From Candidatus Eiseniibacteriota bacterium (GTDB taxonomy: Bacteria; Eisenbacteria; RBG-16-71-46; CAIMUX01): 64,000 nucleotides of DNA. Location: NCBI GenBank assembly GCA_041390305.1, contig JAWKQE010000005.1:144380-208379 (forward strand), read 5' to 3'. Positions 7,443 through 63,134 of the stretch are shown one piece after another. A program made the position numbers and the translations under genes. Position 1 is the stretch's first letter. Every line of letters starts with the position of its first letter. Below the pieces are notes generated by a model. The model made no database searches, had not been told where the DNA came from, and saw only the letters and a list, made by a program, of their open reading frames with translations.

Positions 7443-7485
7443 GGATCGTAGGAGCCGTGGGCGGCAGGTCCGCCCGCGGCTCTTC
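7443..7485 (+). terminator. Possible rho-independent terminator (GC hairpin + CTCTTCCCTTTC) in the convergent intergenic region
   Basis: GCCGTGGGCGGCAGGTCCGCCCGCGGC hairpin followed by a T-rich tract, between the convergent VOC and PP2C genes. Confidence 0.25.
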
Positions 7486-7489
7486 CCTT

Positions 7490-8557: not shown

Positions 8558-8680
8558 CCCCGACTTTCGAAACGGTGATGGCCGCTCGGCCCTCCTTCCG
8601 TGAGCAGCAGCGGTCCGGGTGCTAACATTGAAGACGTTCTCGCGCACCTGCCCCCAAACCGCTACCTGGGAGGATCGGTC

Positions 8681-14984: not shown

Positions 14985-15101
14985 GGTTCGACCTCCGATC
15001 ACCCGGATCGAACCCTGAGCCCCGACGCCCCGCGTGAGGTGCGTCGTGCGCGTGAGTCTCTCCGGCGACCCAATGGGTGGGTCCACCCCGGCAGGACCAC
15101 G

Positions 15102-25086: not shown

Positions 25087-28000
25087 CGATCAGGGCCCGT
25101 CGATGATCCGCGATCACGACGAGATCTCCGCGGGTACAGAGCTCGCCGAGCGCCGAGACCAGCCGCTCGAGGTCGGCGGGGTGTTGCCCGGCACCTGGCT
25201 CGTCGAAGAGGTGGAGTGCAGGCGAGCCGCGATCCATGAGGCTCTGCGCCAAACCGAGGCGCTGCACTTCCCCACCGGACAGGGTCCGGACTTCCCGACC
25301 GAGCGCGAGATGACCGAGTCCCGCGCGAACGAGCGCGTCGAGTCCCGCTCTCAACGACTTCGCGCTGTCCGGAAGTCGCGAAGCGAGAGACGTCGCCGGC
25401 TGGTCCAGGAACTCCGACGGATCGAGGCCGTCCCATCGCACCGCGAGCGGTTCCGGCCGGTACCGTCGCCCCTCACAGACCGGGCAGGGCAGATCCAGGT
25501 CGGCCATGAAATCCATCGCCACGCGCTCGTGACCCGTCCCTCCGCAGGCCGGGCACCGACCCTTCGGGCTGTGGAAGCTGAAGGCCTGGGCCGGCAGATC
25601 GCTTGCTCCGGCTGCCGCGTGATAGAAGCGTTGAAACGGAGTCATGAGGCCGAGGGCGGTGAGAACGGAACCGGCGCGCAGGGTTGTCGCCCGTCCGTGG
25701 ATGGAGCGGAAGTGAGTGAGTGCGTCGACGGGTTCGATCGCATCGCATCCGGCTGGGGTGCCGGCTCGGAACGACGCCTCGATCACGTCGAAGAGCAAAG
25801 TGCTCTTCCCCGAACCGGATGGTCCGACGATCGAGACGAGTCCGGAGCGCGGCAGGTCGAGGTCGAGCCCGCGAATCGGCCCGGCATCGATGCCTCGGAA
25901 GCGGACCCTGGGAGTGTCAGTCGCCCGGGCATCTGTTTGGGCGTCGGCACGGGCGTCCACTTGTGCATCTGTTTGGGCATCCGTTTGGGCGTCTGCTCGG
26001 GCGTCCACTTGGATATCTGCCTGGCCGTCTGCTCGCGGGCTGCGGGTCGGCTTCGTCGGCTCGTCGGATAACACCTCCTCCGGCGCGCCCTCCGCTACGA
26101 TCCGGCCCCCGTCCGGCCCGGCGCCGGGGCCGAGTTCGATCAGGTGGTCGGCCGCGCGCAGTACATCTCGGTCGTGTTCCACCACGACGACGGTGTTGCC
26201 TTCGTCACACAATCCGCGAAGCGCTGCGATGAGCACTCGCGTCTCCCGAGGCTGGAGCCCTGCGCTGGGCTCGTCGAGGACGATCGTGGCACCGGAGAGT
26301 TCCGCGCGGAGCACCGCGGCCAGGCGGACGCGCTGACGCTCCCCGGACGAGAGCGCATCCGTGTATCGGCCGAGAGGAAGGTGCCCGAGACCGAGCCTTT
26401 CGAGGTCGGCGAGTCTCGCCCGGATCTCGGGGACGAGAGATCGGATCGCAGCATGCGCACTCGCGCCCACGGCGTCATCACCGAGTCGGACCAGTTCGCC
26501 GAGGAACGCGAGGAGATCCGTCATTGGAAGCAGCAGCAGCTCGGGAAGTGTGCGCGCCCTCACGGACGTGGGGTCGCTCGTACCTCCGAGGGTCACGGCG
26601 CGCGCATCGACACCGAGCCCTGAGCCCGTGCACTTGGGGCACGGCGACGGAACGAGCGGCGCGCTCCATGCCGCAGCGTTCTTGTGACCCGCCCGCTTCC
26701 GCGCCTCCGACTCGGTGAGCGCGAGGAACCCGGACCACTTCGACTGGAACTGGTGCGCGCCGTCTCCCTCCCGTTTGTCCGCGCCGAACTCCCAGGAAAC
26801 TTGGAAGACACGCTCCCCAGCTCCCTCCAGTGCCACTCGACGCACCCACGCCGGTAGGTCACGCCACGGTGCGGACAGGTCGACGCCTGCCTCGGATACC
26901 CGCAAGGCGGGACCTCCGCCCTCTTCTCGCGGCCCGTCTCCCGGCTCCGCCGCCAGCGCAAACAACGCGGCACGCAGGGTCGCAACGTATCGTCCTTCCG
27001 GCTCGGAGAAGAACTCGCCCGGCTTCGTTCCGGCCAGCGCTCCTCGGAGGAGGGAGCGCTCGGGAGACGTGACGAGTCGGTCTGGATCACAGAGTTCGAG
27101 GACGCCGCGTCCGTGACATGCGGGACACGCGCCCAGGGCGCGGTCGGAACTGAAGTGTTCGGCCGTGAGCCCACAAGGAGTGCCGTCTCGTTTCCCTGCG
27201 CGCGCGAAGAGGAGACGAAGTGTGGGACCGACTCCGCTCTGGGTCGCCACGGTCGATCGTGCGCCTCCACCGTGCTCACCCTGACGGAGGCTGAGCGTCG
27301 GCCCGAGACCGCGCGCGGCCTCGAGACGTGGACGCGGCATCCGCCGCACCTGCCGCCGCACCTCGAACGGGAGGCTCTCCGCGAATCGCTGCCACGCTTC
27401 CGCCGCGAGCGTCCCGAATGCGAGGGAACTCTTGCCACTTCCCGACACGCCACAGATGCCGGTCAGCTTTCCGCGCGGGATTCGGACGTCGATCCCCTGG
27501 AGGTTGTTCGTCGAGACTCCGGCGAGATGGATCTCGGATGGAGCCGAGGGGAGCGGGCGGGCCGAAGCGATCGTGCGCGCGTCCGCCCCCACCCTGCCCC
27601 AGTCCACCTCCGGGTCCCGCCGAATCGCACCGTCCTCGAGTTCGACGAGAACGTCTGCCGCCGCCCAGAGGTGACGATGGTGCGAGATCGCGACGACGGT
27701 GTGCCCGGCCTCGATGAGCCGGTCGAGCGCCCTGATGAGCAACGCGAGATCGGTCGGATGGAGTCCCCGGTCCGGCTCGTCGAGGAGCAGGAGTGTGGGA
27801 GCCGCATCGGTCGTTCCGAGCAGCGTCGCAAGCTTGACGCGCTGCGACTCCCCGCGACTGAGCTGGCCTGAGGGCTGGCCGAGCGAGACGTACCCGAGCC
27901 CGAGGTCGTCCATGGCGCGGCAGAGGTTCGCGACCCTGCGATCGTCCGCGAAGAACGACACCGCGTCGCGCACCGTGAGCGCGAGCACCTCGGCGATCGT

Positions 28001-29887
28001 CTTCCCCCCGAGACGCGGGACCAGTACAGCGGGGGCGTAGCGTCCTCCGCCACACTCCGGGCAGAGGATCTCCGCGTCCTCGACGAGATGGAGGCCGACG
28101 CGGATCACGCCCAGCCCCTCGCACGCCGGGCAGCGTCCTTCCTTGTTGTTGAACGAGAAGTGTCCTGGGCCGAACCCGAGCCGCTTCGCGTCCGGACTGT
28201 CCGCGAAGCTCTTACGCACGAGGTCGAAGAGACCGGACCAGGTCGCGGGCGTGCTCCGTGAGGTGCGTCCGATCGGACGCGCATCGAGGGCCCGCACGGT
28301 TGTGGAGAGTTCGCCCAGATCGAGCGATGCGAAGGGACCGCCCGGCGCGCCGGTCAGTGCGGGCAGGAGCGTCCCGAAGACGAGTGAGCTCTTTCCCGCA
28401 CCGGACGGACCGATGACGACGTTCAGCGCACCGAGTTCGACCGTGAAGTCGTCGCCCTCGAGGTTGTGGAGGGTCGCGCCACGCAGCGTCAACTGTCCGC
28501 CGCTTGGTCGGCGGATCGCCTTGGGGGTCGGCGGCGGGCCGAGCGGATCCAGGGACGGCTCGCCGGCAGGGAGAACGCGCCCCCCTTCCGGCCCCGCACC
28601 TGGACCCAAGCGAACGATCCGATCCGCGTGCCGCACCATGTCGGGATCGTGCTCGACGACGATGAGCGTGTTCCCGAGCGCTCTGAGTTCGCTCAGCACC
28701 GCGCGCATCCCCTCCTGCGCGCTCGGGTGGAGCCCGAGTGTCGGTTCATCGAACGCGAAGAGCGTGCCGGAGAGTCCAGCGGTGAGTTGCGCGACGAGAC
28801 CGAGTCGCTGCGCTTCTCCCCCGGAGAGGGTCGTACTCTCACGGCCCAGGGAGAGGTGACCGAGACCGAGTCGGATCATCCGGTCGAGGCGCGCGTCGAT
28901 CTCGGGACGGAGTGCCTGCAGGACTTCGTGCGGCGGCAACTGATCCAGCGATGGCATGAGCCCCTGGACGGGAAGCGCGAGCAGCTCGGGCAGACGGATC
29001 GTCCCGATCATGGCCTCGCGACCGGGACGCGAGAGGCGCGAGCCCGCACACACCGTGCATGGAACGGAGCGCACGAAGCGGAGCACGTTCGGATTCCGGT
29101 TCCGCTTCAGCGTCTCCTCGATCACGGGGACGAGACCGCGGTAGTAGCCCTCCTCGCGGGGCCGGGCCGTGATCCCCTCCCACTTCATCCGCGACTCGAT
29201 CGGATGCTTCCCGAACGGCACCTGGAGGGCAGTCGTCCCGAAGAAGATGACATTCCGCTGCTCGTCCGTCAGCTCCCGCCACGGAGTGTGGACATCGAAC
29301 CCATGAGCCTCGCAGATCGTCTCCATCACATCGAGCGTGACCTGACTGTAGACGGTGTATCCGTTCTTCAGCGTCGGGACGAGGGCGCCATCTCTCAGGC
29401 TCTTACCCGCGTCCGCGACGAGGAGTTCGGGATCGACCCGATCCTCGACTCCGATCCCGCCGCAGGACTCACATGCACCGACAGGATGATTGAAACTGAA
29501 GTGACTCCGCGTGAGCGACGCACCTTCCGGATCCACCGCGCAACGTGCGTACGCGAGGCGAAGGAGGTCGAGCACACCGGTCATGGTCCCGACCGTCGAC
29601 CGGAGGTTGGCGGTGAACGCGCGCTCCCCGAGCGCGATCGCGGCCGGCAGACCCGTGAGCTCCCGCACGGAGGCACGGCCCAGCTTTCCGAAGTACTGCC
29701 GCGCCCGGGGAGACAGTGTTCCGAGGAACCGGCACTGGCCTTCACGGACCAGGGTTCCGAAGACGAGTGACGTCTTCCCCGAGCCAGACGGGCCGACGAC
29801 GGCGATCCACTCGCCGTGGGGAAGATTGAGGTCGATGCCCTGGAGGTTGTGCTCGGTGGCGCCTCGGAGTCTCAGGATGCCGGACAT
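25052..29887 (-). CDS. Tandemly duplicated (single-chain double) UvrA-like ABC ATPase, 1611 aa with four nucleotide-binding modules
   Basis: Four Walker A sites (GPSGSGKTSLVFGTL, GPSGAGKSSLVFGTL, GVSGSGKSSLAFGTL, GPSGSGKSTLLFDVI). Four ABC signature / Walker B pairs. UvrA-type Zn-finger Cys pairs. Acidic DAQT/DARA low-complexity linker. Confidence 0.8.
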   Translation of the reverse strand: MSGILRLRGATEHNLQGIDLNLPHGEWIAVVGPSGSGKTSLVFGTLVREGQCRFLGTLSPRARQYFGKLGRASVRELTGLPAAIALGERAFTANLRSTVGTMTGVLDLLRLAYARCAVDPEGASLTRSHFSFNHPVGACESCGGIGVEDRVDPELLVADAGKSLRDGALVPTLKNGYTVYSQVTLDVMETICEAHGFDVHTPWRELTDEQRNVIFFGTTALQVPFGKHPIESRMKWEGITARPREEGYYRGLVPVIEETLKRNRNPNVLRFVRSVPCTVCAGSRLSRPGREAMIGTIRLPELLALPVQGLMPSLDQLPPHEVLQALRPEIDARLDRMIRLGLGHLSLGRESTTLSGGEAQRLGLVAQLTAGLSGTLFAFDEPTLGLHPSAQEGMRAVLSELRALGNTLIVVEHDPDMVRHADRIVRLGPGAGPEGGRVLPAGEPSLDPLGPPPTPKAIRRPSGGQLTLRGATLHNLEGDDFTVELGALNVVIGPSGAGKSSLVFGTLLPALTGAPGGPFASLDLGELSTTVRALDARPIGRTSRSTPATWSGLFDLVRKSFADSPDAKRLGFGPGHFSFNNKEGRCPACEGLGVIRVGLHLVEDAEILCPECGGGRYAPAVLVPRLGGKTIAEVLALTVRDAVSFFADDRRVANLCRAMDDLGLGYVSLGQPSGQLSRGESQRVKLATLLGTTDAAPTLLLLDEPDRGLHPTDLALLIRALDRLIEAGHTVVAISHHRHLWAAADVLVELEDGAIRRDPEVDWGRVGADARTIASARPLPSAPSEIHLAGVSTNNLQGIDVRIPRGKLTGICGVSGSGKSSLAFGTLAAEAWQRFAESLPFEVRRQVRRMPRPRLEAARGLGPTLSLRQGEHGGGARSTVATQSGVGPTLRLLFARAGKRDGTPCGLTAEHFSSDRALGACPACHGRGVLELCDPDRLVTSPERSLLRGALAGTKPGEFFSEPEGRYVATLRAALFALAAEPGDGPREEGGGPALRVSEAGVDLSAPWRDLPAWVRRVALEGAGERVFQVSWEFGADKREGDGAHQFQSKWSGFLALTESEARKRAGHKNAAAWSAPLVPSPCPKCTGSGLGVDARAVTLGGTSDPTSVRARTLPELLLLPMTDLLAFLGELVRLGDDAVGASAHAAIRSLVPEIRARLADLERLGLGHLPLGRYTDALSSGERQRVRLAAVLRAELSGATIVLDEPSAGLQPRETRVLIAALRGLCDEGNTVVVVEHDRDVLRAADHLIELGPGAGPDGGRIVAEGAPEEVLSDEPTKPTRSPRADGQADIQVDARADAQTDAQTDAQVDARADAQTDARATDTPRVRFRGIDAGPIRGLDLDLPRSGLVSIVGPSGSGKSTLLFDVIEASFRAGTPAGCDAIEPVDALTHFRSIHGRATTLRAGSVLTALGLMTPFQRFYHAAAGASDLPAQAFSFHSPKGRCPACGGTGHERVAMDFMADLDLPCPVCEGRRYRPEPLAVRWDGLDPSEFLDQPATSLASRLPDSAKSLRAGLDALVRAGLGHLALGREVRTLSGGEVQRLGLAQSLMDRGSPALHLFDEPGAGQHPADLERLVSALGELCTRGDLVVIADHRRALIDASCRVVHLGG
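25931..26026. repeat. Degenerate 12-nt tandem repeat (about x8, ...TTGGGCGTC) within the double-UvrA CDS, encoding a (DAQT/DARA)n linker
   Basis: Seen directly in the sequence. Confidence 0.8.
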
Positions 29888-35295: not shown

Positions 35296-35457
35296 GATTC
35301 TTCGAATCCGCGTGACACCCCACGGGGCGATCTCGCGCGTTTACGGGCAACCCCGACGGCGAGACTCTCTGCCAAACTCGCGAACCCGACTCCCGTAGCC
35401 AGCGCGTCCCCCGCCGGCCCGGGCCGATCGACCGTGTTCGCTGGAAGGAGCCGAACC

Positions 35458-37608
35458 GTGGCTCACGATCGCTCTAGGCCTCGCGTCGCACGGAGACTGT
35501 TCACGAATCCTGTCCCGGCCTCGCCGACATTCCGCAGACGCTCACGTTCCTGGCTCACGAACGCGGCCCTGATCGCTGCCTGGATCGGTGCCCCTCTCTG
35601 CGTGGGCGAGGCCGGGGCGGCCCCCTCTCCGCCGCTTCGGGGAACGGCCAGTCTCCACTTCCACCTGGACCAACTCGCCGTCCTGGATCTCGCAGTCACC
35701 GACGTCGTCGAGAGTGGAGAGCGTGACGGGCGGCTCCACCCGACCGAGGAACCGCTCTGGACGTTTTCCGTCGCGGTCGGAAGTGAGTTCGACCTGGCGG
35801 GGACAACTCGAGCCCGGATCGACGTAAACGCGCTCAGCGCCGACCTCTCCCACGAAGGAGGCTTCGCCATCCGCGACCTCGCGACCGGCGACCTGCTCCC
35901 CTTCCGGCCGTTCCAACTCGCGTGCGATGCGGGATCGAGCGAACTCAGCCTGATCGGCTCGGACGGAGCGGCGCGGCTCCGCCTCGATCACGCGCGCATT
36001 CTCGGGAGCTCTCCGGCGCACGGACACAAGACCGTCCGCATTCTCGACTTCGACCTGCGCATGACACGCTCCGCGGCTCTCTCCCTCCAGCGCCCCGATC
36101 TGGAGGACGCGCTCATCGGAACCGGGCAGTGGATTCTGGACCTCGAGTCCATGGACGCGTCGGAGGAGATCTCCGGGCTGCAAACCCGCGCGGATCAGGA
36201 CCCATCCACCCTCCGCACTTCGATCTCGACCACCGGCTGCACGACCGACGGAAAGCTCGCGGAGCTCTACCAGCCGGCGACGTTCGGGAGGATCGGCTCC
36301 TTCCCCGACGGCGAGACCTCGCTCGCCCTGGCGACGACGATCTGCAACATCGGCGACTGTTCCATCCCCTGGAACGCGCCGATGAACGAGGCGCATCCCG
36401 GCGTAGCCATGCAACTCTATCGTCTCGCGGACGGGAAGTTCGAGCAGATCGGCCTCAGCGACGTGAAGCACGGCTACTTCCCCTTGGGACTCGACGGATG
36501 CGGAAACCTCTGTACCGACCTCCCGAACGACCTCGGCATCGGATGCCAGGACACGTACGGTGCGTCGAGCAACGCGGATCGCCTCTGGCTCGCTCCCCGG
36601 GACGAGTGGTCGGGCTTCCTTGGAACGTGGGAGTGCACCGGAAGCCACTTCGCGGGCGGCGAGCCGGACTGCGTACGCCGCCACGACAGCTCCGGGCACG
36701 ATCCGGTGGAGCATCGTCTTCGGGTACGCGACGCCGATCTGATCGACCCGACCGACTCCTACTTCATCGAGGCGATGTACATCGTCGCGGGGGACGTCGA
36801 TCGCTTCGACAACTACGGCCACCGTCCGATCACGTTCGTCCGCACGGGAGACGACTACACATTCAGCGTGGGGAGTGGATTCTCGGCGACCGAAGGCCCG
36901 GCACTCCAGGCCTGGGGACCTGAGCTCCACTGGGGAACGTTCCCGGGAGAAGGCAACCTGCTCCTCGGCTACTCCGTCACGAACATCGGCGGCGGCCAGT
37001 ACCAGTACGAGTACGCGCTCCAGAACCTCGACTCCGATCTCGGCGTGAAGAGCTTCCGGGTTCCGATCGGAAGCGGAGCACTGAGCGGAATCGGCTTCCA
37101 CGACCCGAACGGAGACGAGCTCGACGACTGGACGGCCACCGTCGACGGCAACGAGCTGATCTGGGAAACGGAGACGAACCCGATCCGGTGGGGAAACCTC
37201 TACAACTTCCGCTTCGTTTCCCCGGAACCCGGAGTTCCCGGCCTCATCTCCTGTGCTTCCTTCGTCGGCGCATCGACTGCAACGATAGAAGCGCTCGTTC
37301 CCGGCGACGTGTCTTCGGTCCCCTCGACCCGCGTCGACTTCGCCCTCGAGATCAGACCGAACCCGACCGCGCACGCGAGCCGGATCGAGTTCAGCCTGCC
37401 CCGCACCGCAGACGTCGGTCTCGATGTGTACGACAGCGCGGGCCGACTGGTTCGCCGGCTCGTCGCGGGACCGCTGTCCGCCGGTGTTCACCGCCTGGTG
37501 TGGGACGGCACGGACGACCGTGGTCTGGACGTCGGCTCCGGAGTCTACTACTGCCGACTCGGAGCGGACGGAGAAGCCGCGATCCGTACGGTGCGCCGAG
37601 TTCGGTAG
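35458..37608 (+). CDS. Large secreted hypothetical protein with FlgD-like/T9SS-type C-terminal domain
   Basis: GTG start with GGAAGGAG SD. N-terminal TM/signal (LTNAALIAAWIGAPLCVGEA). C-terminal ...GSGVYYCRLGADGEAAIRTVRRVR. Directly downstream of the ECF sigma factor. Confidence 0.6.
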   Translation: MAHDRSRPRVARRLFTNPVPASPTFRRRSRSWLTNAALIAAWIGAPLCVGEAGAAPSPPLRGTASLHFHLDQLAVLDLAVTDVVESGERDGRLHPTEEPLWTFSVAVGSEFDLAGTTRARIDVNALSADLSHEGGFAIRDLATGDLLPFRPFQLACDAGSSELSLIGSDGAARLRLDHARILGSSPAHGHKTVRILDFDLRMTRSAALSLQRPDLEDALIGTGQWILDLESMDASEEISGLQTRADQDPSTLRTSISTTGCTTDGKLAELYQPATFGRIGSFPDGETSLALATTICNIGDCSIPWNAPMNEAHPGVAMQLYRLADGKFEQIGLSDVKHGYFPLGLDGCGNLCTDLPNDLGIGCQDTYGASSNADRLWLAPRDEWSGFLGTWECTGSHFAGGEPDCVRRHDSSGHDPVEHRLRVRDADLIDPTDSYFIEAMYIVAGDVDRFDNYGHRPITFVRTGDDYTFSVGSGFSATEGPALQAWGPELHWGTFPGEGNLLLGYSVTNIGGGQYQYEYALQNLDSDLGVKSFRVPIGSGALSGIGFHDPNGDELDDWTATVDGNELIWETETNPIRWGNLYNFRFVSPEPGVPGLISCASFVGASTATIEALVPGDVSSVPSTRVDFALEIRPNPTAHASRIEFSLPRTADVGLDVYDSAGRLVRRLVAGPLSAGVHRLVWDGTDDRGLDVGSGVYYCRLGADGEAAIRTVRRVR

Positions 37609-38825: not shown

Positions 38826-40628
38826 CTATTCGAGAATGACGACGCGCGAGGACGCTGTGCTCGTCTCCGTCCGCGCACGGACGAGATAGATGCCCGCGGG
38901 CAGGGACGCTCCCCGGTCATCGCGCCCATCCCACACCACGGTCTTCGTTCCCGACGGCACGACGGCATCGACCAGGCTGCGCTGGAGACGACCATCGGAC
39001 GAGTACACGTCCACCGAAACCACGCCGGTCACCGGGACGTCGTACTCCAGTGTCACCTGGTCACGGAGCACCGTCGGCACCGCGCGCAGGGATCCCGCAT
39101 TCGGCCCGACCGCAACGTCGTCCACCGCGGACGGAGCGATCGGAACGGTCACGCGGAAGAGTCCTTCCAGCACCACGGTTCCACGCGACGTATCCGAGCT
39201 TCCATCGGCGGAGGAAGCGGCATCCTCCGCGGCCGAGGCGCCTTCGATGCCAAGCGCATCGCAGACCTCGACGGAGAGAGCCTCACCAGGGTCGGTCGAG
39301 AGAACATCACCGCCGTGATCGGGCGCGGCCACCAAAGCCGACCGCCATCCGGTCTGACGGGCGAGCGTGATCGGAATCTCGACATCCGCGGTGAAGTACG
39401 CATCGACCTCGTCCCCGAACCGATCGCCCAGAGTGAGCGAGCTGATTCCGGTGAAGTCCGTGAGACGCGTTCCCGCGTCGACCAGTCCGTCTCCGTCCCA
39501 GTCGACTTCGTCGTTCTCCACGAGCACGATCTGATCGTTGACGATGAGCGCCTCGAGGGCCGCCGTTTCTCCCACGATGTCCCAGACCAGCGCATAGTCT
39601 CCGTCCGCGTTGAGATACCCGCCTTCGATCGCGCCGGTCAGGGTCTCGCCGTCCAGAACATCGCCCTCGCGGAGTACGAGGACACCGTCACGCGCATAGA
39701 ACTCGTCCGTCGCGGTGGAGCCTCCGGCCGTGTTTCCGGTCAGCATCCAGTCACCGCTCTCGGTGATTCCGACGAAGTCGAGGCCCGCCCAGGTCTCGAC
39801 GCCGTCGCCACCGGACTCGACCGGAATCACGACGCCTTCCCGCACGGGTTGACCGTTCGATTCCGCCACCGCGCCGTCGATCCCGATCGCGGTGTCGACC
39901 GAGGACGAGGCGTTGAGTGTCACCTCCGCGACGTAGTGCGTTCCCAAGGACGAGAACCGATAGTCGAAGGAGATGTTCGTGACCGGGACGGGGAGCCCCG
40001 CGAGCATGTCGCCGCTGAAGATGAGCGGAGTGGCGTCGAATCCGTAGAACAGCCCACGGTCGACCGTGGAACCGCCTTGCGTGTCGGTGACCCCACCCAC
40101 CCAGTAGGGCACTCCATCGGCCGTCACTCCGGGGCGACTCCCGAACGACCAGAACCGGTTCGGATCGTTCGGATAGACGTCCTCTTCCACGGCGATCGGA
40201 GCTTGATCCAGCCAGACAGCATCGAGACCGGTAGATCCGCTCACGGTATCCGTGCAGCTCGGGCTGTACGACACCTCCCCGGCATCGCCGATTCCGAAGA
40301 AGCTCTCGAACGACGTCTGGATGTACTGGCCGTAGGCTCCCTCCATGAAGAGGACGCCACCGGCGCCGCCATCTGCAGATCCCCAAACGTAGCTCGTCGT
40401 GTTTCCTCCCAGATCTGCATTGAGAGTGACTGCATAGCCGTCTGCATGGTTGACGGCGGAGTTGCTGAGCGAGGTGATCGTCTCTCCGTCTCCGACGAAT
40501 GGGTCGCCTTCGTGGATCAACGCGCTGGCGACTTGCGCTGCGGCGGGAGAAGGGACGAGAGCACAGGTGAGGGCGATGCCCGTCGCAACGGACGCGAGCG
40601 CACCGCACACTGGACGCAACCTCGGCAT
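38826..40628 (-). CDS. Secreted hypothetical protein with FlgD-like/T9SS-type C-terminal domain
   Basis: CTAGGAGG SD. Signal peptide MPRLRPVCGALASVATGIALTCALVPSPAAA. C-terminal ...AGIYLVRARTETSTASSRVVILE. Confidence 0.6.
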   Translation of the reverse strand: MPRLRPVCGALASVATGIALTCALVPSPAAAQVASALIHEGDPFVGDGETITSLSNSAVNHADGYAVTLNADLGGNTTSYVWGSADGGAGGVLFMEGAYGQYIQTSFESFFGIGDAGEVSYSPSCTDTVSGSTGLDAVWLDQAPIAVEEDVYPNDPNRFWSFGSRPGVTADGVPYWVGGVTDTQGGSTVDRGLFYGFDATPLIFSGDMLAGLPVPVTNISFDYRFSSLGTHYVAEVTLNASSSVDTAIGIDGAVAESNGQPVREGVVIPVESGGDGVETWAGLDFVGITESGDWMLTGNTAGGSTATDEFYARDGVLVLREGDVLDGETLTGAIEGGYLNADGDYALVWDIVGETAALEALIVNDQIVLVENDEVDWDGDGLVDAGTRLTDFTGISSLTLGDRFGDEVDAYFTADVEIPITLARQTGWRSALVAAPDHGGDVLSTDPGEALSVEVCDALGIEGASAAEDAASSADGSSDTSRGTVVLEGLFRVTVPIAPSAVDDVAVGPNAGSLRAVPTVLRDQVTLEYDVPVTGVVSVDVYSSDGRLQRSLVDAVVPSGTKTVVWDGRDDRGASLPAGIYLVRARTETSTASSRVVILE

Positions 40629-41972: not shown

Positions 41973-44900
41973 TTGAAGAAGAGCGCTCCGGCCTGCCGGA
42001 TCGAAGGCGCGCGCACGCACAATCTCAAGGGCATCAGCTGCCAGATCCCGTTCGGGAAGCTCACCGCGGTTACAGGAGTTTCGGGTTCCGGGAAGTCGAC
42101 CCTCGCGTTCGACGTTCTCTACGCCGAAGGCCAGCGGCGTTTCGTCGACTGCCTTTCGACCTACGCTCGTCAATTCCTCCAGCGGCTCGATCGTCCGGAT
42201 GTCGACCGGATCGGAGAGATCCAGCCGCCGATCGCCCTCAAACAGCAGGTGTCGATCCGGAACGCCCGCTCGACCGTCGGGTCGATCACCGAACTGTCGG
42301 ACCTCCTCCAACTGCTCTTCGCCCACGGAGGAACGCCCCATTGTCCGGCGGACGGGACCGAACTCGTGCTCCACACGGCCGAGAGCGCCGCGGAGGCGCT
42401 GCGATCCCTCGGGGCGGACCGGAAGTTCGTACTCACGGCGCAGGTTCGACTCCCCGCCGGAACGGGCGGGCTCGCTGCCGCAGTCGCGCTCGGATATCAG
42501 GAACAGGGCTACACGCGCATCTATCGAAAGAGCGAAGTCCAGGAGTGGACCGAACCCCATCGAGGGGGAGACTACGACGTCGTGATCGATCGGTTCACGA
42601 CTCGTGCGCTCCCCCGCGCCCGCGCACTGGAAGCGATCGAGGCGGCGTGGAAGCTCGCCGGTGGACGGGCCGACGTCTGGGAACTCGGCGAGGCAGAGCC
42701 GCTCACCTCGCTCACCGAAGGGCTCTCGTGTCCGACCTGCCACGAACGGACCCGTCCTCTGCGTCCGCAGCTCTTCTCCCCCAACTCACCACTCGGCGCG
42801 TGTCCCGAGTGCAACGGGTTCGGGCGGATCGTCGTCCTCGACCGCGACAAGGTCGTGCCGAATGGAAGCCTGAGCCTCGACGAGGGCGCAGTGGTTCCGT
42901 TCGAGACCAAGACGGGACGGCTCTTCCGGAGAGCGATGCTCGCGGAGGCCAAGGCCCGTGGCATTCCGACGAACGTGCCCTTCCGCGACCTCTCCCCGGC
43001 CGAGAAGGACTGGGTTTTCGAGGGGGCGCCGGTCGAACGACGGAAGCGGCCCGCCGCCGGGAAGACAGGCGCAAAGACAGGCGGAAAGGCTGGCGGAAAG
43101 GCCGGCGGAAAGGCCGGCGCACAGGCAGGCGCACGGGCAGGCGCGGACGTGCCTACCCAGGCAGCCATCTCCGCCACAGTTCGGTCCGCGGCGCGGAGGT
43201 ATCGCGGCGTCGAAGGCCTCTTCAAGAAGCTCGAGCGCAAACGGTACCGTCCTCACGTCCGGATCTTCCTCGCGCGGTTCCGGGGATACGAGACGTGCCC
43301 CAAGTGCCGCGGGTCCCGCCTCCATCCGGTCGCGCTCTCGGTGACGATCGGAGGGCTCGACCTCGCACGGATCGAGCAGATGCCGGTCCAGGATCTGCTC
43401 ACGTTTCTGGAACAGCTCGATCTCGGCTCGGCGCGGACCGCACGCGTTCGACTCGTCCTGGACGAAGCGAAGGAGCGGCTCGAGTACCTCACGGAAGTCG
43501 GCCTGGGGTACCTCACGCTCGCGCGCACGGCCCGCACGCTCTCGGGCGGCGAAACCCAGCGGATCCGGCTCGCCTCCGGCCTCGGGACGTCTCTGACCGA
43601 GACGCTCTACGTCCTCGACGAACCAACGGTCGGCCTCCATGCCGCCGACACCGCGCGCATGCTCGAGGTCCTGCGCCAACTCTGCGCGAGCGGGAACACG
43701 GCGGTCGTCGTCGAGCACGACCCAGGGATCGTCCTCCACGCGGATCATCTCATCGTGCTCGGCCCCACGGGCGGAGAAGGCGGCGGTGAGGTCGTCTATG
43801 AAGGAACGACCGACGGATTCGTAATGGAGCATCCGGAGTTCTTCCGCGTGAGTGACGCACTCGGCCGGCTCGGGAGCGAGGAGCACCGGGTGGCAGGCGC
43901 CGACGCGCGCAGCGGACCCGCGTCTGCGATCCGGCTCCGCGACGTCCGGCAGCACAATCTCGAGATCGAAGCACTCGATCTCCCGACCGATCGCCTCGTC
44001 GTGATCACCGGTGTGTCGGGTTCCGGGAAGTCCACGCTCATCGAGGACGTGCTCTATCGGAACGCGCTCCGCCAGTTCGGAAAGCCGGTCGAGGACGTCG
44101 GGCGGGTCGGTGAGCTGACCGGTCTCGACTCGTTCACCGAAGTGCTCCTCGTCTCCCAGAATCCGCTCGGCAGGTCGAGCCGCTCGACACTCGTCAGCTA
44201 CACCGGCCTCCTCGCGCCGGTACGGAAGCGTCTCGCGTCCACCCCACGCGCGAAGGAACTCGGCCTCCGTCCGGGAGACTTCTCCTTCAACGTCCCGGGC
44301 GGACGGTGCGAAACGTGCAAGGGGATGGGCTCGGTCCTTCTCGAAATGCACTTCATGGCCGACGTAGAGGTCACCTGCGAGGTCTGCAAGGGCAGGCGCT
44401 TCCGCGAGGACGTCCTCGAAGTGACGCACGGAGGACGCTCGATCCTCCAGTATCTGGACCTCACCGTGAGCGAGGCCCTGGAGGTGTTCGAAGGCGACCG
44501 CGACGCGGTGCGGCGACTCACGCCTCTCATCGACGTCGGACTCGGCTACCTGCGCCTGGGGCAGAGCACGTCCACTCTCTCCGGCGGAGAAGCCCAGCGT
44601 CTCAAGCTCGCGAGCCTGCTCGCGGAGGGCCAACCGACTGAGAAGCGTCCGGCGAAGAGCACGAAGGCGGCACGCAAGAAGTCACGCTCCGCCAAGAGCC
44701 CGGCGACATCCGCCGGCCGTCGGGTCTTCCTCTTCGATGAACCGACTTCCGGGCTCCACCCACAGGACATCCAGAAGCTGCTCGATGCACTGCGAGGACT
44801 GCTCGCGCTCGGACACGCCGTCGTCGTGGTCGAGCATCAACTCGACTTCATCGCATCCTGTGACTGGATCGTGGACCTGGGACCCGGCGGAGGCGCGGAA

Positions 44901-45113
44901 GGTGGCCGCCTGCTCTACTCGGGCGCGGTTCCGAGAATCCTCGACGTTCCGGGGTCCATCACGGGAAGACTGCTCCGCGAGCAGATCTGTGGACCGGCCT
45001 GCATTGGCGAGCAGGTCGCCGAACGAAGCGACGATGCCCGGCGCCAGAAACGGACGCGCGCCGCTTCCAGGAACAGGAAGAAGGGGTCGACGGAGACCAC
45101 GGCGCCCGCGTGA
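41973..45113 (+). CDS. UvrA-like ABC ATPase paralog (1046 aa) with a Gly/Lys-rich insertion
   Basis: TTG start. Two Walker A sites (GVSGSGKSTLAFDVLYAEGQRRF; GVSGSGKSTLIEDVLY). Two signature motifs (LSGGETQRIRLAS; LSGGEAQRLKLAS). Zn-finger Cys pairs. Insertions GKTGAKTGGKAGGKAGGKAG and KRPAKSTKAARKKSRSAKS. Confidence 0.8.
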   Translation: MKKSAPACRIEGARTHNLKGISCQIPFGKLTAVTGVSGSGKSTLAFDVLYAEGQRRFVDCLSTYARQFLQRLDRPDVDRIGEIQPPIALKQQVSIRNARSTVGSITELSDLLQLLFAHGGTPHCPADGTELVLHTAESAAEALRSLGADRKFVLTAQVRLPAGTGGLAAAVALGYQEQGYTRIYRKSEVQEWTEPHRGGDYDVVIDRFTTRALPRARALEAIEAAWKLAGGRADVWELGEAEPLTSLTEGLSCPTCHERTRPLRPQLFSPNSPLGACPECNGFGRIVVLDRDKVVPNGSLSLDEGAVVPFETKTGRLFRRAMLAEAKARGIPTNVPFRDLSPAEKDWVFEGAPVERRKRPAAGKTGAKTGGKAGGKAGGKAGAQAGARAGADVPTQAAISATVRSAARRYRGVEGLFKKLERKRYRPHVRIFLARFRGYETCPKCRGSRLHPVALSVTIGGLDLARIEQMPVQDLLTFLEQLDLGSARTARVRLVLDEAKERLEYLTEVGLGYLTLARTARTLSGGETQRIRLASGLGTSLTETLYVLDEPTVGLHAADTARMLEVLRQLCASGNTAVVVEHDPGIVLHADHLIVLGPTGGEGGGEVVYEGTTDGFVMEHPEFFRVSDALGRLGSEEHRVAGADARSGPASAIRLRDVRQHNLEIEALDLPTDRLVVITGVSGSGKSTLIEDVLYRNALRQFGKPVEDVGRVGELTGLDSFTEVLLVSQNPLGRSSRSTLVSYTGLLAPVRKRLASTPRAKELGLRPGDFSFNVPGGRCETCKGMGSVLLEMHFMADVEVTCEVCKGRRFREDVLEVTHGGRSILQYLDLTVSEALEVFEGDRDAVRRLTPLIDVGLGYLRLGQSTSTLSGGEAQRLKLASLLAEGQPTEKRPAKSTKAARKKSRSAKSPATSAGRRVFLFDEPTSGLHPQDIQKLLDALRGLLALGHAVVVVEHQLDFIASCDWIVDLGPGGGAEGGRLLYSGAVPRILDVPGSITGRLLREQICGPACIGEQVAERSDDARRQKRTRAASRNRKKGSTETTAPA

Positions 45114-53447: not shown

Positions 53448-56212
53448 CTAGCGGAGCAGCACCTTCCGCACCGTCGCGCCGGCCGGCGTCTGCGCCCTCA
53501 GGAAGTAGATCCCGTGCGCTACGTTCGGCATGGCGACACCGAGTTCGTGCGTGCCCGCCGTGAGCTCACGATCGAGCAGGCTCTCGACGCGGCGGCCGCC
53601 CACGTCGAAGAGCCCCACACTCACCCGTCCGGCCACGGGAACCTCGAGCCGGAGAGTGGAGCTGCCCTCGGGTCCGGAGACGGAGAGACTCGCCTTCGGC
53701 AGTGCCGCGAAGTCCGGCGATCCCGTTTCCTGTTCGTCGAGGAACGCCATCTCGAGCGCGTAGTTCTCCGACCCTTCCACGCTGAAGTAGTCCTCGATGT
53801 AGAAGGTCCAGGTCCCTGGTGACGGGCTCTCGATGATCGCCATCTCCGGGCTGTCGATCGTGGCCGCGGGCACGAACTCGCCGCTCGGTCCGAAGATGAA
53901 CAGGTCGAGGTCGTAGGTCGGGAACTCTCTCCAGTCGTGATCCCAGGACAGGCGGACGCCGAGGATGCCGAACCCGGCGGGAACGTCGACTTCATGGATG
54001 GCGGATTCACCGAACCCGAGGCTTCCCGTCGCCGTGTAGTCCGCCGTGATGTCGAGCGGAACGCCCTCCATGCTGAAGCCGAGGCTGGCCGGACTGATGT
54101 TCGAGAACGGAGCGATCACGGTGACGCGTGCCTTGCCGGGCTCCGGGAACTCGTACGTGAAGCCGTCTCCCGGAGTCGCCGGGGACGAGACGAATCGGTA
54201 GTCACCACTCGCGCCACGCTTCGCCGAGTGAACGAGGAGAGCGAGCGCGTCCCCGATGAGCGGGTTCTGGTCCGCTCCGAGCGCCACGTCGTCGATCGTG
54301 AACTCGATCGCGGCCGTGTTCTCCGGAACGTCGACGAAGAAGTCGAAGGTCTCACCCGCGGCGAGCGGCGGCGTCCGGAACGACTGTACGTTCGCGGTCA
54401 GGTCGACTCTCCGAGTGAGGACGTGACGCAGGTCCGCGGGGTCCGCCGACATCGCGCCCGCCTCGAGCTCCGCGAGCGCGGCGGGCAGGTTGATGAATCC
54501 GTAGCCCTGGTCCCGCATGCTGAACGACCGAAGGTCCGAGATCGGGATTGCGCCGTTCCGCAGGGCGTTCGCGACGAAGGGGGCCTCATCCCCGAGCCCG
54601 TTGAGCTTCCCATACGCGGTCACGAGTGCGGCAGCGCCGGCCACGGTCGGAGAGGCCAAGGACGTCCCGACCGCAAATCCGTAGTTCGGCGTGTCCCTCA
54701 ATCCGTCGCCGTTCACGTCCGCGGTCGACGCCGTGAAGACGAGGAATCCCGTCGCCACCACGTCCGGAACGAGACGCCGGTCTGCCGTGAGACCGCGGGA
54801 GCTGAAGTCGCCGACCATCATCTCGTCGTACGGATAGACCAACTGCCCGATTCCGACGGAGCCGAACAGGTAGTCGATGCCCACCCGCGCGTGGAGCGGA
54901 TCGGTCACCGCGCCGACGGCGAGCCCCGTGTGCGCGCTGGCCGGGCTGCCGACGCTCATCAGCACCGGTCCCTCGTTCGATGCGGCGGAAACGACGGTGA
55001 TACCTGCGGCCGTGGCCGCGTCGACGAGGAGGTCGAGCGGATTCCCACCGTCGTTCAGCACGGGACCACTGAGGCTCATGTTGATGACGTCCGTATCGAG
55101 CTCGCCGGTCTTCTTCATCGAGATGACGAGATCGATCGCTTCCGCCACCCGCGCGTCGGGAGCGCTACCGATTCCGTAGGGGAAGACCTTGACCGCGTAG
55201 AGCGACGCTCCCGGCGCCGTCCCCATGAGCGCGATCGCGGCCGTTCCGTCGCCCAGGAACTCGACCGAGCCCGGACTGTTCGCGGCAACGGCGAGAACGA
55301 ACGGATCGTCGGCCGGAAGGACGAGTTCGACATGGCCGGCGACCATGCCGGACACCGCAGTGCCGTGACTGCCGTTCTCGATGGCGTTCCAGTCGAAGGA
55401 GAGACCGTCCGGGATGCTATCCCCGTTGTAGTCCCACGCCTGCTCCTCCGCCTCCGGAACGAGGTTCGTCCCCCCGATCACGTTCCCATCCAGCATCGGA
55501 TGGCCCGGATAGATCCCGCTGTCGATGACGGTGACGATCACACCGTCTCCGTAGTTCGTCTCCTCCCACACGTCGCTCGCGCCGGTCATGTCGTTGTACT
55601 CGGCGAAGGCACGCTTCGCGGAGTGGCGGTCCGGTGACCTGGAAGTGAGCAGTCCGGGATCCGTCGAACTGGGATCGAGCGAGCTGGGGTCGAGCCGCGT
55701 AGGATCGATCGCATCGGAGAGCAGTGACTTGGGATCGAGCGGCGTGCTGCGGAGCGGCCGCGACCGCAGCGGAACGATGCAATCCTCGGGCACGTCACCG
55801 AGATCGAACCGTCCCTCCAGCCCGGGTGGGAACGACGGCGGAAGGATCGCGGGATGGACCAGCGTCTGCCGCCCGACGAAGTCGATCCCGGCGAGACGTC
55901 CCAGATCGCCCAGCGCGTCCGGCGGCACGGTCGCCGACAGGGCCGGGATGTTCTCGAACCGATAGGTCACGATCCGCCGGCAGCTCCGATGGTCCGTGCA
56001 GCCGCCTCGAGGTTGGATCCCATGATCATGACCGGCAACTGCCCCTCAGCCGTCGGTGGGGCGAACGGTGCTGTGGACGCGAAGAACCGAGCGTCCGGTC
56101 CGATACTCGGCCCGGTGTCCGTGTCGGAGACTCTCGACCCGTCCGCCCAGGACGCTGCCGATGTAAGGAGGCCCAGGCCCAGAGCGAGCAGAGTCGTCTT
56201 CAGTGTGCGCAT
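53448..56212 (-). CDS. Subtilisin-like (S8) serine peptidase with FlgD-like/T9SS-type C-terminal domain; apparent -1 frameshift near 55970 separates the signal-peptide ORF (55967..56212) from the catalytic ORF
   Basis: Catalytic triad motifs VIDSGI (Asp), HGTAVSGMVAG (His) and GTSLASPTVAGAAAL (Ser). C-terminal ...GIYFLRAQTPAGATVRKVLLR. An upstream ORF in another frame supplies the signal peptide (MRTLKTTLLALGLGLLTSAASWA) with an AAGGAGGAG SD. Confidence 0.7.
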
Positions 56213-60889: not shown

Positions 60890-61651
60890 ATGAGGAAACG
60901 ACTCGTCTCTGTGCCCGTATCCGTTTCGCTGCCTGTCTCCACGTTCGCCCTCGTCGCCGGTCTTGCACTGCTCTCGGTGCCGAGCGCCCAGGCACAGAAC
61001 TACCACCCGCTCGACGAAGGACTCCACTGGGAGTACGCGAGCACGGTCGACGGTACGATGCACGTGACCATGATGGACGATCGAGACGTCTTCGGCACGG
61101 AAACCCGGATCCGCCTGCAGGAAGAGGAAGCGCAGACCTATGAGAACTACTGGACGTCCGACACGTCCGGGAATCTCTTCCTCCACGGTGCCTACAACTA
61201 CGACGGGTTCGGATTCCTCTTCGATCCGCCGATCCAGCTCGTCTCGGCGCCGCTCTTCCTGGGAAAGGCATGGACGACCGACGGAATCCAGACCTTCGAT
61301 CTGGACGGGAATCCTTCGGGCTCCGAGCCGTTCGACTATCCGATGCGCGTCTACACCGAAGGAACCGAGACGGTCCCGGCGGGGGACTTCTACGGCTATG
61401 GCGTGGGATTCGACTTCGGCGCGACCCTGCGGTTCAGCGCAAACGGGAGCACGTACGACGTCTTTGGACGACGCGTGGAGAACACCGAGGAACGGGGCGG
61501 CTCTGCAACGGATTGGTACGCCGAAAACGTCGGAGTGGTGATCTACTCTGCACTCGCGGACCCGGAGACGGGATTCCGACTCGTCTCCTACGACTCCCCG
61601 GTTCCGGTGCAGCCGATGAGTTGGGGTGTGATCCGGTCGCTCTTCCGCTAG
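60890..61651 (+). CDS. Secreted hypothetical protein ending in the SWGxV(K/R)xLFR C-terminal tag (...PVQPMSWGVIRSLFR)
   Basis: CCAGGAGG SD. Signal peptide MRKRLVSVPVSVSLPVSTFALVAGLALLSVPSAQA. C-terminal 15 aa align with the termini of the three giant paralogs, but the body is unrelated. Confidence 0.7.
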   Translation: MRKRLVSVPVSVSLPVSTFALVAGLALLSVPSAQAQNYHPLDEGLHWEYASTVDGTMHVTMMDDRDVFGTETRIRLQEEEAQTYENYWTSDTSGNLFLHGAYNYDGFGFLFDPPIQLVSAPLFLGKAWTTDGIQTFDLDGNPSGSEPFDYPMRVYTEGTETVPAGDFYGYGVGFDFGATLRFSANGSTYDVFGRRVENTEERGGSATDWYAENVGVVIYSALADPETGFRLVSYDSPVPVQPMSWGVIRSLFR

Positions 61652-61800: not shown

Positions 61801-62916
61801 TCAGCGAATCCGCATCAACGTTCCGCTGCTCTCACCGTGCACCGTCCGAGCCAAGAACGGATACGCGCCGCTTGGCAAAGACTCTCCTCGCTCGTTGCGT
61901 CCGTCCCAAAGCAACCCTCCCGCGCCCGGCCCCTCGAGCGTGCGCACGGTTCGCCCCGTGGCGTCGTGGATCGTGACGACGACGTTGCGGGCGTCCCCGA
62001 ACTCCAATCGCGTCCAGGCTCCGAAAGGGTTGGGATGTGCGCTCACCGCGAGCTTTGATACGACCTCACCAGGATCCGGCAGGGCCGACGGATCCGGGCG
62101 GAGCTGGGCGAGGTGTCGTGGTCGTTCGATTCCACCCGAGAGCAGCACTTCGTGGTCACTGCCATCGAGGTTCGCGCTCCATATGACTCCAGAGAGATCA
62201 CTCCCGTAGATCCTGCCCGCAGCGGGATCCAACGCGAGGCCGGACGCACCGGCCATGGTCACGAGCTGGGACTGACCGCCGGAGAGTTCCGAGCGATAGA
62301 CGCCGCCCGACGTCGCGACGTACACGTGGCCCGCCGCGCCATCGATGGCCACGTCCACCGGCGTGGGAAGCCCATCCATGACCACCTCCAGGCCGCTTCC
62401 ATCGTAGTTCATGCGCTCGAGGCGGGTGTTCTGCCCTCCACTCACGTAGACCTTCGCTGCAAACGCGTCGACCGCGACACCACGCGCGTGTCCGGCCAGG
62501 TTCGCGATCTCCACGGCTCCGGTCCCGTCCAGGTTCGCGCGCCAGACCCCACCCGTGGCAACGTTCGTCCAGACGAACATGCCCGCATCCCGATCGAGGG
62601 CCAGGCCGGCGGGGTTGAAGAGATCGGACAGGAGTGGAACCACGTCGGACCCGTCGAGCCGCGCCTCGTACAGCGTCGAGGTCACACCGTCGACCCAGTA
62701 GATCCGATCGGCACCTCGGTCCACGACCAGGCCTTCCGGATAGTCGAGGCCGGAGAGAACGATCTGGCGATCGCTGCCGTCCACGTTCGCCCGTTCGATC
62801 GTCCCGAGCGTCGTATCCGACCAGAACAGCGACACGGAGCCGGCGGCGACGTTCTGGGCGGTGAGGGGCAGGAGGACCAGCGAGAGGAGCACGCGGACAC
62901 CGCGAAGGTCGAGCAT
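61801..62916 (-). CDS. YWTD (LDL-receptor class B)-repeat beta-propeller protein with FlgD-like/T9SS-type C-terminal domain
   Basis: Internal ATG 62916 with GGAGGAGG SD. Signal peptide MLDLRGVRVLLSLVLLPLTAQNVAAG. Propeller blades RIYWVD, MFVWTN, KVYVSG and HVYVAT. C-terminal ...GAYPFLARTVHGESSGTLMRIR. Confidence 0.65.
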   Translation of the reverse strand: MLDLRGVRVLLSLVLLPLTAQNVAAGSVSLFWSDTTLGTIERANVDGSDRQIVLSGLDYPEGLVVDRGADRIYWVDGVTSTLYEARLDGSDVVPLLSDLFNPAGLALDRDAGMFVWTNVATGGVWRANLDGTGAVEIANLAGHARGVAVDAFAAKVYVSGGQNTRLERMNYDGSGLEVVMDGLPTPVDVAIDGAAGHVYVATSGGVYRSELSGGQSQLVTMAGASGLALDPAAGRIYGSDLSGVIWSANLDGSDHEVLLSGGIERPRHLAQLRPDPSALPDPGEVVSKLAVSAHPNPFGAWTRLEFGDARNVVVTIHDATGRTVRTLEGPGAGGLLWDGRNERGESLPSGAYPFLARTVHGESSGTLMRIR

Positions 62917-63134
62917 CGACACCTCCTCCGGAGCGTTCGTGAATCGGTGGTCGGGTCCGAAAGCGTTCCGCACTGGTGGTCGCTGGAAGAGCCGGGTTGA
63001 TACGCGCGCACGGCCCTGCCATCGCGACCGCAGTCACCTCAGCGTCAACGTGTCATCGTCGCCGTCGCGTCGGATTCGACCGGGGACACCATCGTCCGCC
63101 TCGGGCGCCAGCGTCAGCGGCCTCGGCTCCCCCG

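Follow-up and report, generated by a model that had tools for sequence, protein, structure and literature searches.

A conserved C-terminal tail on unrelated exported proteins of Candidatus Eisenbacteria and other lineages, probably an undescribed sorting or anchoring tag

Four exported proteins with a common C-terminal tail

The stretch of Candidatus Eiseniibacteriota DNA analysed here (64 000 nucleotides, referred to throughout as the window; G+C content 66%) encodes four exported proteins that end in one and the same kind of short peptide, called the tail in what follows (an example of the tail peptide is PVPVEQSSWGKIKALYR). Three of the four are giant paralogues. Paralogue 1 (1516–4011, + strand; 831 residues; R3E97_05475 = P0029) is an exported protein with Cys-rich repeats and a C-terminal tail, paralogue 2 (4296–6650, +; 784 residues; R3E97_05480 = P0023) consists of a signal peptide, GACC...CxPNPC repeats, a β-sandwich and the tail, and paralogue 3 (8681–11902, +; 1073 residues; R3E97_05495 = P0025) is the longest. 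The fourth is a 253-residue exported protein (60890–61651, +; R3E97_05685 = P0001) with a signal peptide, a β-rich domain spanning residues 46–234 and the tail. The window proteins are identical to entries from a Candidatus Eisenbacteria metagenome-assembled genome (MAG) with locus tags R3E97_05475 to 05685 on a contig of 251,689 bp, and the tail carriers are annotated as hypothetical proteins.

Called mechanically, the four open reading frames (ORFs) are 1372–4011, ending in ...CGASPVRRSSWGEVKALFR, 4296–6650, ending in ...CGPVPVQESSWGKVKALFR, 8600–11902, ending in ...CGTIPVQESSWGKVKALFR, and 60890–61651, ending in ...SPVPVQPMSWGVIRSLFR, all on the + strand and each with the stop codon directly after the last residue given. 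The four tails lie at 3958–4011 (A-S-P-V-R-R-S-S-W-G-E-V-K-A-L-F-R, stop TAA), 6597–6650 (P-V-P-V-Q-E-S-S-W-G-K-V-K-A-L-F-R, stop TAG), 11849–11902 (T-I-P-V-Q-E-S-S-W-G-K-V-K-A-L-F-R, stop TAG) and 61598–61651 (P-V-P-V-Q-P-M-S-W-G-V-I-R-S-L-F-R, stop TAG), again on the + strand. A six-frame scan of the window for SWGx[VIL][KR]x[LIVM]F[RK] returned exactly these four occurrences, all immediately 5' of a stop codon, and no internal copy was found in the window even when a looser pattern was used. The corresponding DNA pattern matches the window four times, compared with 0.00 matches expected from 100 dinucleotide-preserving shuffles. An earlier reading of the DNA made from the sequence alone (the sequence-only reading) had proposed a shared C-terminal tag on four secreted proteins, and this proposal is borne out by the scan.

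The N-termini of all four proteins are hydrophobic and resemble signal peptides, and none of the four has a match in Pfam or NCBIfam. No transmembrane helix follows the motif in any of them. The distinction drawn in the sequence-only reading from signals of the PEP-CTERM and LPXTG type, which have such a helix, therefore stands: only nine residues lie beyond the signature and no NCBIfam model is matched.

The starts annotated in the MAG for paralogues 1 and 3 (1516 and 8681) differ from the mechanical ORF starts (1372 and 8600). Between paralogues 2 and 3 lies an ORF for a SpoIIE/PP2C-like membrane phosphatase (7490–8944, −), which overlaps the mechanical start of ORF 8600–11902 and thus fits the later start at 8681 that gives the 1073-residue P0025. 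Several Cys-rich repeats, each some 40 residues long (GACC..G.C.....C...GG.F.G....C.PNPC), are found in the giant paralogues along with a β-sandwich domain at the C-terminus; neither the repeats nor the β-sandwich has a model in Pfam or NCBIfam. More than 1000 proteins, most of them from Eisenbacteria, make up the family of the giant paralogues.

Conservation, distribution and exchange of the tail

The motif [ST]WGx[IVL][KR]xx[FY][RK] closes all 22 homologues of the 253-residue protein, whose identities go as low as 25%, and the Trp at position 245 of the 253-residue protein is invariant among them. For the giant paralogues, the tail or a close variant is present in 80 of the best 120 homologues. 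A logo was made from 102 tails of these two families, which were anchored by demanding W, [GAS], [VILMT] and [KR]. The resulting consensus is P(-8) V(-7) P(-6) [VT](-5) x x x [ST](-1) W G x [IVL] K x x [FY] R, a stretch of about 17 residues. The conservation is confined to the C-terminal end, as the sequence-only reading had it; the extent of about 15 residues given there was too short, since P-V-P-[VT] at -8 to -5 belongs to the conserved part, and the Leu at +6 of its motif SWGx[VI][KR]xLFR is variable in the wider families. The Trp is present in 102 of the 102 tails and the Gly in 100. Lys is preferred to Arg at +4 (93:9) and Arg to Lys at +8 (70:6), Pro(-6) stands at a fixed spacing from the Trp in 88 of the 102 tails, and positions 2, 5 and 6 are variable. 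The distance from the Trp to the C-terminus is nine residues in 72 of the 102 proteins and ten in a further 12, longer extensions being rare.

At the DNA level, synonymous variation is found at every degenerate codon position of the tail, all three stop codons (TAA, TAG and TGA) are used, and the 30 nucleotides 3' of the stop are unconserved (maximum base frequency 0.44). The G+C content of tail-bearing genomes ranges from 31 to 75%. As the synonymous sites are free and the downstream DNA is not conserved, selection acts on the tail peptide rather than on the DNA.

The wider distribution was surveyed in one genome per GTDB species with a stop-free DNA pattern for [ST]WGx[VIM]KxL[FY]R. The scan yielded at least 119 loci with 127 matches listed, and all of the locus-derived counts given below rest on these. 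The pattern fixes K (AAR), L (CTN), F/Y (TWC) and R (CGN) and therefore undersamples variants and low-GC genomes. A stop codon directly follows 110 of the 127 matches (binomial p ~ 1e-126 against an expectation of 3/64) and one or two extra residues precede the stop in another 13. Three matches fall in very short ORFs and are chance-like (L010, L033 and L066), and clearly internal copies are seen at one locus only (L107). The sequence-only reading would have been undone by a motif no commoner than chance, and the association with stop codons is very far from chance.

Taxon labels, taken from the record titles, were available for 69 of the at least 119 loci, with 50 loci unlabelled. The labelled loci comprise 26 from Eisenbacteria, 12 with labels beginning Krumholzibacteri-, 11 beginning Fibrobacter-, eight beginning Gemmatimonad-, five of the Ignavibacteria/Kapabacteria type, three beginning Latescibacter- and four with other labels. 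Lineages of the Fibrobacteres–Chlorobi–Bacteroidetes (FCB) superphylum account for 65 of the 69. Bacteroidia or Flavobacteriia labels were found at none of the 69, with a pattern that disfavours low-GC genomes; loci with 31–36% G+C were nonetheless recovered.

With a relaxed regular expression, 141 tail ORFs of at least 80 residues were identified in the listed loci. Once the last 20 residues had been removed, these fell into 75 clusters not linked by BLAST, so that the tail is carried by at least 75 families. The modular character claimed for the tail in the sequence-only reading is thereby supported. A hydrophobicity heuristic places an N-terminal hydrophobic signal region in 120 of the 141 ORFs, nine of which have a lipobox-like site. 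Pfam domains are recognised in a minority of the tail proteins and are all typical of exoproteins: LTD (Lamin-tail), right-handed β-helix, PMP repeats, NosD, NHL/SGL propellers, carbohydrate-binding modules, PPC and MAM. The tail genes frequently lie in tandem paralogue arrays. On the contig of P0011, a homologue of the 253-residue protein, a second and unrelated tail protein (L001, 464–1144, +; ...LTWGKLRTLFR) is encoded 9 kb upstream, a pair that is an unselected example of tail-gene density. At L044, beside an array of six tail-bearing lipoprotein paralogues, an ORF (7059–7850, +) ends in ...EEHDEIKDLYR; with IKxLYR present and W-G absent, its end may be a decayed tail.

The internal copies at L107 (JBBTRH010000024.1, minus strand) come from a MAG labelled Patescibacteria, in which two neighbouring secreted proteins (ORFs at about 939–1844 and 3519–4364 of the reverse complement) have a common N-terminal module consisting of a signal peptide, a linker and an internal extended motif, ..TAKPA[IV]RSTWGAIKALYR... 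Differing catalytic domains follow this module, one of them Peptidase_M23 (E = 2.5e-11). The presence of an internal copy of the motif before two different hydrolase domains suggests that the tail peptide is an autonomous binding module. The L107 proteins may direct lytic enzymes to their target by imitating the tail; alternatively, the contig may have been binned wrongly. The same DNA pattern gave six matches in IMG/VR, of which five are C-terminal tails on signal-peptide proteins. These are encoded on contigs classified as viral (L121–L124 and L126) and include a metallophosphoesterase-like pair (L122 and L123); they could be prophage-flanking host genes, genes on misclassified contigs or phage-encoded envelope-targeted proteins.

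Five other proteins of the window end in a C-terminal domain (CTD) of the FlgD-like type associated with the T9SS (type IX secretion system). They are an NHL/SGL β-propeller protein with a FlgD_ig/T9SS type A CTD (13821–15086, −; FlgD_ig E = 2e-12, TIGR04183 28.8 bits against a cutoff of 23), two proteins with FlgD_ig-type CTDs (35434–37608, +, E = 1.1e-12; 38826–40628, −, E = 3e-6), a subtilase (Peptidase_S8) with a weak Por_Secre_tail-type CTD (53448–55970, −), in which Por_Secre_tail is matched only weakly, and an LDL-receptor-class-B/SGL propeller protein with a FlgD_ig-type CTD (61801–62973, −; E = 8.7e-9) that adjoins the 253-residue tail protein. Besides FlgD_ig (E = 3e-6 to 1e-12), the CTD proteins at 13821, 35434, 38826 and 61801 match Por_Secre_tail/TIGR04183. 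The five had been recognised in the sequence-only reading, and their hidden Markov model (HMM) matches agree with it, weakly so for the S8 protease; the coordinates given there for two of the genes were slightly off with respect to the ORFs. Elsewhere in the window are two UvrA-like ABC ATPases (25052–29887, − and 41973–45113, +), one of which is double-sized (1611 residues) and matches both ABC_tran and UvrA DNA-binding models repeatedly.

None of the known C-terminal domains includes the tail. Tail peptides match no model of NCBIfam (June 2026) or Pfam, and neither they nor the whole proteins match any of the curated sorting-domain models in these libraries, those for T9SS types A and B, PEP-CTERM and LPXTG among them. 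The T9SS CTD models match none of the four window proteins at E ≤ 1, none of ten tail peptides at E ≤ 10 and none of 134 tail proteins, and the Pfam models FlgD_ig and Por_Secre_tail are absent from the tail proteins. An HMM built from the local FlgD-type CTDs recovers 46 CTD ORFs in 35 of the 119 listed loci, in every case at the C-terminus, and matches none of the 141 tail ORFs; the tail therefore differs from the FlgD-like/T9SS CTD, as had been claimed. A PDB search with the tail profile matched no chains. A padded tail alignment run against an index of 5.8 billion proteins gave 41 candidates, none of them scoring, and padded alignment A3 (42 columns), run against 1.84 billion representative proteins, returned mostly repeats or relatives of the 253-residue protein and has no value as a census.

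The relation between the two endings can be seen in homologous proteins that differ in them. P0023 (paralogue 2) and P0091 (R3E97_04180), which are encoded in the same MAG, align with 39% identity over residues 127–764 and 57–694, respectively, and the alignment runs to ...WGPTQAIGIGGEFI in P0023 and ...FGSAHALGIGVALV in P0091. Past this junction P0023 has 20 residues ending in the tail and P0091 has about 100 residues of CTD. Likewise, two neighbouring genes at L013 encode proteins that are 67% identical over 181 residues, one tail-ended and the other with a FlgD_ig CTD. Alignments of paralogue bodies stop 9–20 residues short of the C-terminus. Taken together with the lack of a CTD HMM match and with AlphaFold models of two families that place the tail outside the fold, this shows that no known CTD has the tail as its last strand; had one done so, the sequence-only reading would have been refuted. 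In the giant family a dockerin-like ending (..D.N.DG.V.F.D...F.....C.) takes the place of the tail or CTD in P0047, P0088, P0109, P0115, P0120, P0129 and P0138. Since homologous bodies end in a tail, a CTD or a dockerin-like segment, the tail, judged by its sequence context, appears to behave as one of several interchangeable C-terminal localization modules. Its presence on at least 75 unlinked families and its exchange with the T9SS CTD inside one MAG also uphold the claim that the genome uses two distinct C-terminal tags.

TGA stops are rarer in tail genes (39 of 138) than in other long ORFs of high third-position G+C content from the same loci (106 of 183; Fisher p = 1.5e-7). The CTD genes are intermediate (19 of 46), and the four window tail genes all stop at TAA or TAG. 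This depletion could reflect selection against read-through past the tag or an effect of expression level.

The T9SS type A signal is a folded C-terminal Ig-like β-sandwich of about 70–100 residues with seven strands, and the type B signal comprises 150–235 residues (PMC12618676). With signals that are folded domains of these sizes, the tail lies outside both classes. The 'basic terminal domain'/FPm-1 of Fibrobacter was considered as an identity for the tail and rejected, because the literature equates it with the 70–90-residue T9SS CTD (PMC3079729, PMC6851124). No description of the tail was found in the open-access literature. C-terminal sorting tags as a concept are already known. The tail, which matches no curated family or solved structure, is built differently, lacking both a transmembrane helix and a folded domain, and its phyletic range is distinct.

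Predicted conformation and proposed function

An AlphaFold model of the 253-residue protein computed with the family alignment has a β-rich domain at residues 46–234 (predicted local distance difference test, pLDDT, above 90) with a fold weakly resembling YmcC/DUF3108, followed by a low-confidence linker and a helix at residues 245–251 (pLDDT below 50). The model of the C-terminal 225 residues of paralogue 2 is organised similarly, with the β-sandwich extending to residue 206, a linker and a helix at residues 217–223 (pLDDT of about 50). Conservation along the tail has a periodicity score of 8.0 at 100 degrees compared with 1.7 at 180 degrees, and W0, G1, I/V3, K4, F/Y7 and R8 fall on one helix face. 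The tail is therefore predicted to be helical. The mean Eisenberg hydrophobicity of the nine residues beyond the signature is -0.03.

The same tail on at least 75 unrelated exported families, together with its replacement by a CTD in sister proteins, indicates that the tail probably serves to sort or anchor proteins, as a tag not described before. The specific form of this idea that we favour, to which we give about an even chance of being right, is that the tail is a modular C-terminal targeting peptide of about 17 residues on Sec-exported proteins of Eisenbacteria and other FCB lineages which docks through a helix to an envelope receptor. The carrier would be exported via Sec and fold, and a flexible Pro-rich linker would then expose a short helix of about two turns. 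The face formed by W0, G1, I/V3, K4, F/Y7 and R8 would dock into a conserved receptor in the envelope, which might be a shuttle, a translocon or a transpeptidase, and docking would direct the carrier to, or hold it at, a defined site in the envelope or at the cell surface. As the tail alternates with the T9SS type A CTD of about 100 residues, it would represent a second choice of anchor. The invariance of the Trp and Gly, the preferences for Lys at +4 and Arg at +8, and the fixed spacing of P-V-P-[VT] favour a specific receptor over generic membrane binding, and it is from these features that we infer a protein receptor. A broader proposal is more tentative and on balance rather unlikely: the tail may define a T9SS-independent export or surface-anchoring pathway with its own receptor or translocon, common to Eisenbacteria, Krumholzibacteriota, Gemmatimonadota, Latescibacterota, Fibrobacterota and Ignavibacteria-type Bacteroidota and serving hundreds of families, with other organisms copying the peptide to aim lytic enzymes at the receptor.

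The main rival to a receptor-docked tag is an in-plane amphipathic helix that binds the membrane or lipopolysaccharide directly, as a peripheral anchor like those of MinD, FtsA and PBP5, with no protein receptor. We consider this unlikely, at something over one chance in five expressed loosely, with the following in its favour: the tail is a short C-terminal segment placed after a flexible linker, it is modelled by AlphaFold as a helix of low pLDDT, its 100-degree periodicity puts W, I/V and F/Y on one face with K and R flanking, a few extra C-terminal residues are tolerated, and its sequence recalls ...GFLKRLF.. of MinD and ..SWIKRL.. of FtsA. Known targeting helices, however, keep their amphipathicity and not their sequence, whereas the tail keeps its Trp and Gly almost without exception and its P-V-P-[VT] at a fixed spacing. 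The hydrophobic moment lies just ~0.8 standard deviations above that of shuffled tails, a single nine-residue helix with a mean hydrophobicity near zero would be a weak anchor, and some of the carriers are already lipoproteins. Less likely again is a minimal T9SS signal that would stand in for the CTD in short form and be recognised by PorV, SprA or a PorP-like shuttle; we regard this as improbable. The two endings do keep company, with CTD genes in 35 of the 119 listed tail loci and five CTD proteins in the window, the tail takes the junction of the CTD in paralogues, and in each of the two, hydrophobic residues precede a basic residue at the C-terminus. Against this, T9SS signals are folded domains (PMC12618676) and the tail is a peptide of 10–17 residues, modelled as helical, that matches no CTD model; moreover, the labelled loci include no Bacteroidia or Flavobacteriia (for a pattern that disfavours low GC) and no PorP/SprF-like gene adjoins the tail genes examined.

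The remaining explanations would take the tail out of localization altogether. That it is read by a periplasmic protease, chaperone or PDZ-type sensor in quality control, regulated turnover or maturation is in our view quite improbable. An exposed peptide, part disordered and part helical, at the extreme C-terminus of exported proteins would suit such a role, and the depletion of TGA could reflect selection for an exact C-terminus. But ligands of PDZ domains and tail-specific proteases normally need a free hydrophobic C-terminus, whereas the tail ends in Arg and extensions of 1–8 residues occur; nor would one expect a degradation tag to stand in for a secretion or anchoring domain or a dockerin-like module, or to sit on tandem arrays of abundant exoprotein families. 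A functionless tail, whether a chance match, the remnant of one mobile domain or a DNA element at gene ends, can be virtually discounted. In its favour, three of the four window copies are on paralogues and many tails follow one CxPNPC repeat module; yet the shuffled windows contain no copies, the association with stop codons is overwhelming, the carrier families are numerous and unrelated, the synonymous sites vary freely beside unconserved downstream DNA, and the tail is kept in orthologues at 25% identity whose flanking residues have diverged.

Several observations weigh against the receptor-docking interpretation. The window and about 125 neighbourhoods yielded no receptor, translocon or processing enzyme and no partner gene that recurs; the co-occurring processing or transport gene envisaged in the sequence-only reading accordingly did not emerge. 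Clustering of the neighbourhoods returned only common paralogous families (ABC ATPases, sigma-54 regulators, kinases, TPR proteins and extracytoplasmic function sigma factors) and the CTD proteins. In the window and in the arrays examined, the tail genes have no PorP/SprF-like neighbours, nor were genes resembling exosortases or sortases seen close to tail genes. The pLDDT of the modelled tail helix is about 50 or lower, and the hydrophobic moment (0.49 as a helix and 0.47 as a strand, with 0.36 ± 0.16 for shuffles) does not discriminate between helix and strand. The anchoring of the logo on W, [GAS], [VILMT] and [KR] inflates the conservation at those four positions. The distribution comes from a scan with one codon pattern that gave at least 119 loci, 50 of 119 being without a taxon label. 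Finally, both the sorting or anchoring of the tail proteins and the place where they end up are what we infer rather than what was observed.

Comparison with known sorting systems

The LPXTG, PEP-CTERM and T9SS CTD tags each opened the way to finding a dedicated envelope machine and made cell-surface proteomes predictable from sequence. In phyla with hardly any cultured members, the tail picks out a large class of exported proteins that has gone unannotated, almost every one being labelled hypothetical. Because the tail is so strictly conserved, the existence of a partner can be put to a direct test, and at its short length it could be used as a fusion tag. A simple HMM or regular expression for the tail would improve the annotation of thousands of MAG proteins and would separate two classes of exoprotein in genomes of the FCB superphylum.

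The closest parallel is the T9SS type A CTD (TIGR04183/PF18962 Por_Secre_tail; FlgD_ig-like PF13860), which like the tail is C-terminal and modular, occurs on many Sec-exported families of the FCB superphylum and occupies the same junction in paralogues. The N-terminal Sec signal expected of type A substrates is also present on the tail carriers (all four in the window and, by the heuristic, 120 of the 141 tail ORFs). The two differ in that the CTD is an Ig-like β-sandwich of about 100 residues, whereas the tail has 10–17 residues, consists of a linker and a modelled helix and matches no CTD HMM; in the listed loci they never occur on one protein (none of the 141 tail ORFs). The type B CTD (TIGR04131/PF13585 CHU_C) is more distant, as its HMM does not match the tail, its length does not fit and no PorP/SprF-like neighbour is present in the arrays examined. 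Signals for exosortases, sortases and rhombosortases (PEP-CTERM, LPXTG, GlyGly-CTERM, MYXO-CTERM and PGF-CTERM) share with the tail a signature near the C-terminus (P-V-P-[VT]... in the tail), a basic end and a spread over many families. In those signals the signature precedes a transmembrane helix about 20 residues long and a cluster of basic residues, whereas the tail offers nine residues with a Lys at +4 and no NCBIfam match.

Short terminal helices with an aromatic/aliphatic face, Lys/Arg flanks and a flexible linker before them are found in MinD, FtsA and PBP5/6 as they are predicted for the tail. The former are degenerate in sequence and mostly cytoplasmic, in contrast to the invariant W-G, position-specific Lys and Arg, fixed Pro element and exported carriers of the tail. 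The β-signal of outer-membrane proteins is likewise at the extreme C-terminus with an aromatic residue near the end, but it ends in the aromatic residue and forms an alternating barrel strand, whereas the tail ends in Arg, has helical periodicity and is preceded by domains of a soluble type. Dockerins, finally, are C-terminal docking modules, as is proposed for the tail, and in the giant-paralogue family endings of a dockerin-like kind take turns with the tail and the CTD; a dockerin is built of duplicated Ca-binding segments over about 60–70 residues, whereas the tail is modelled as a single decapeptide helix.

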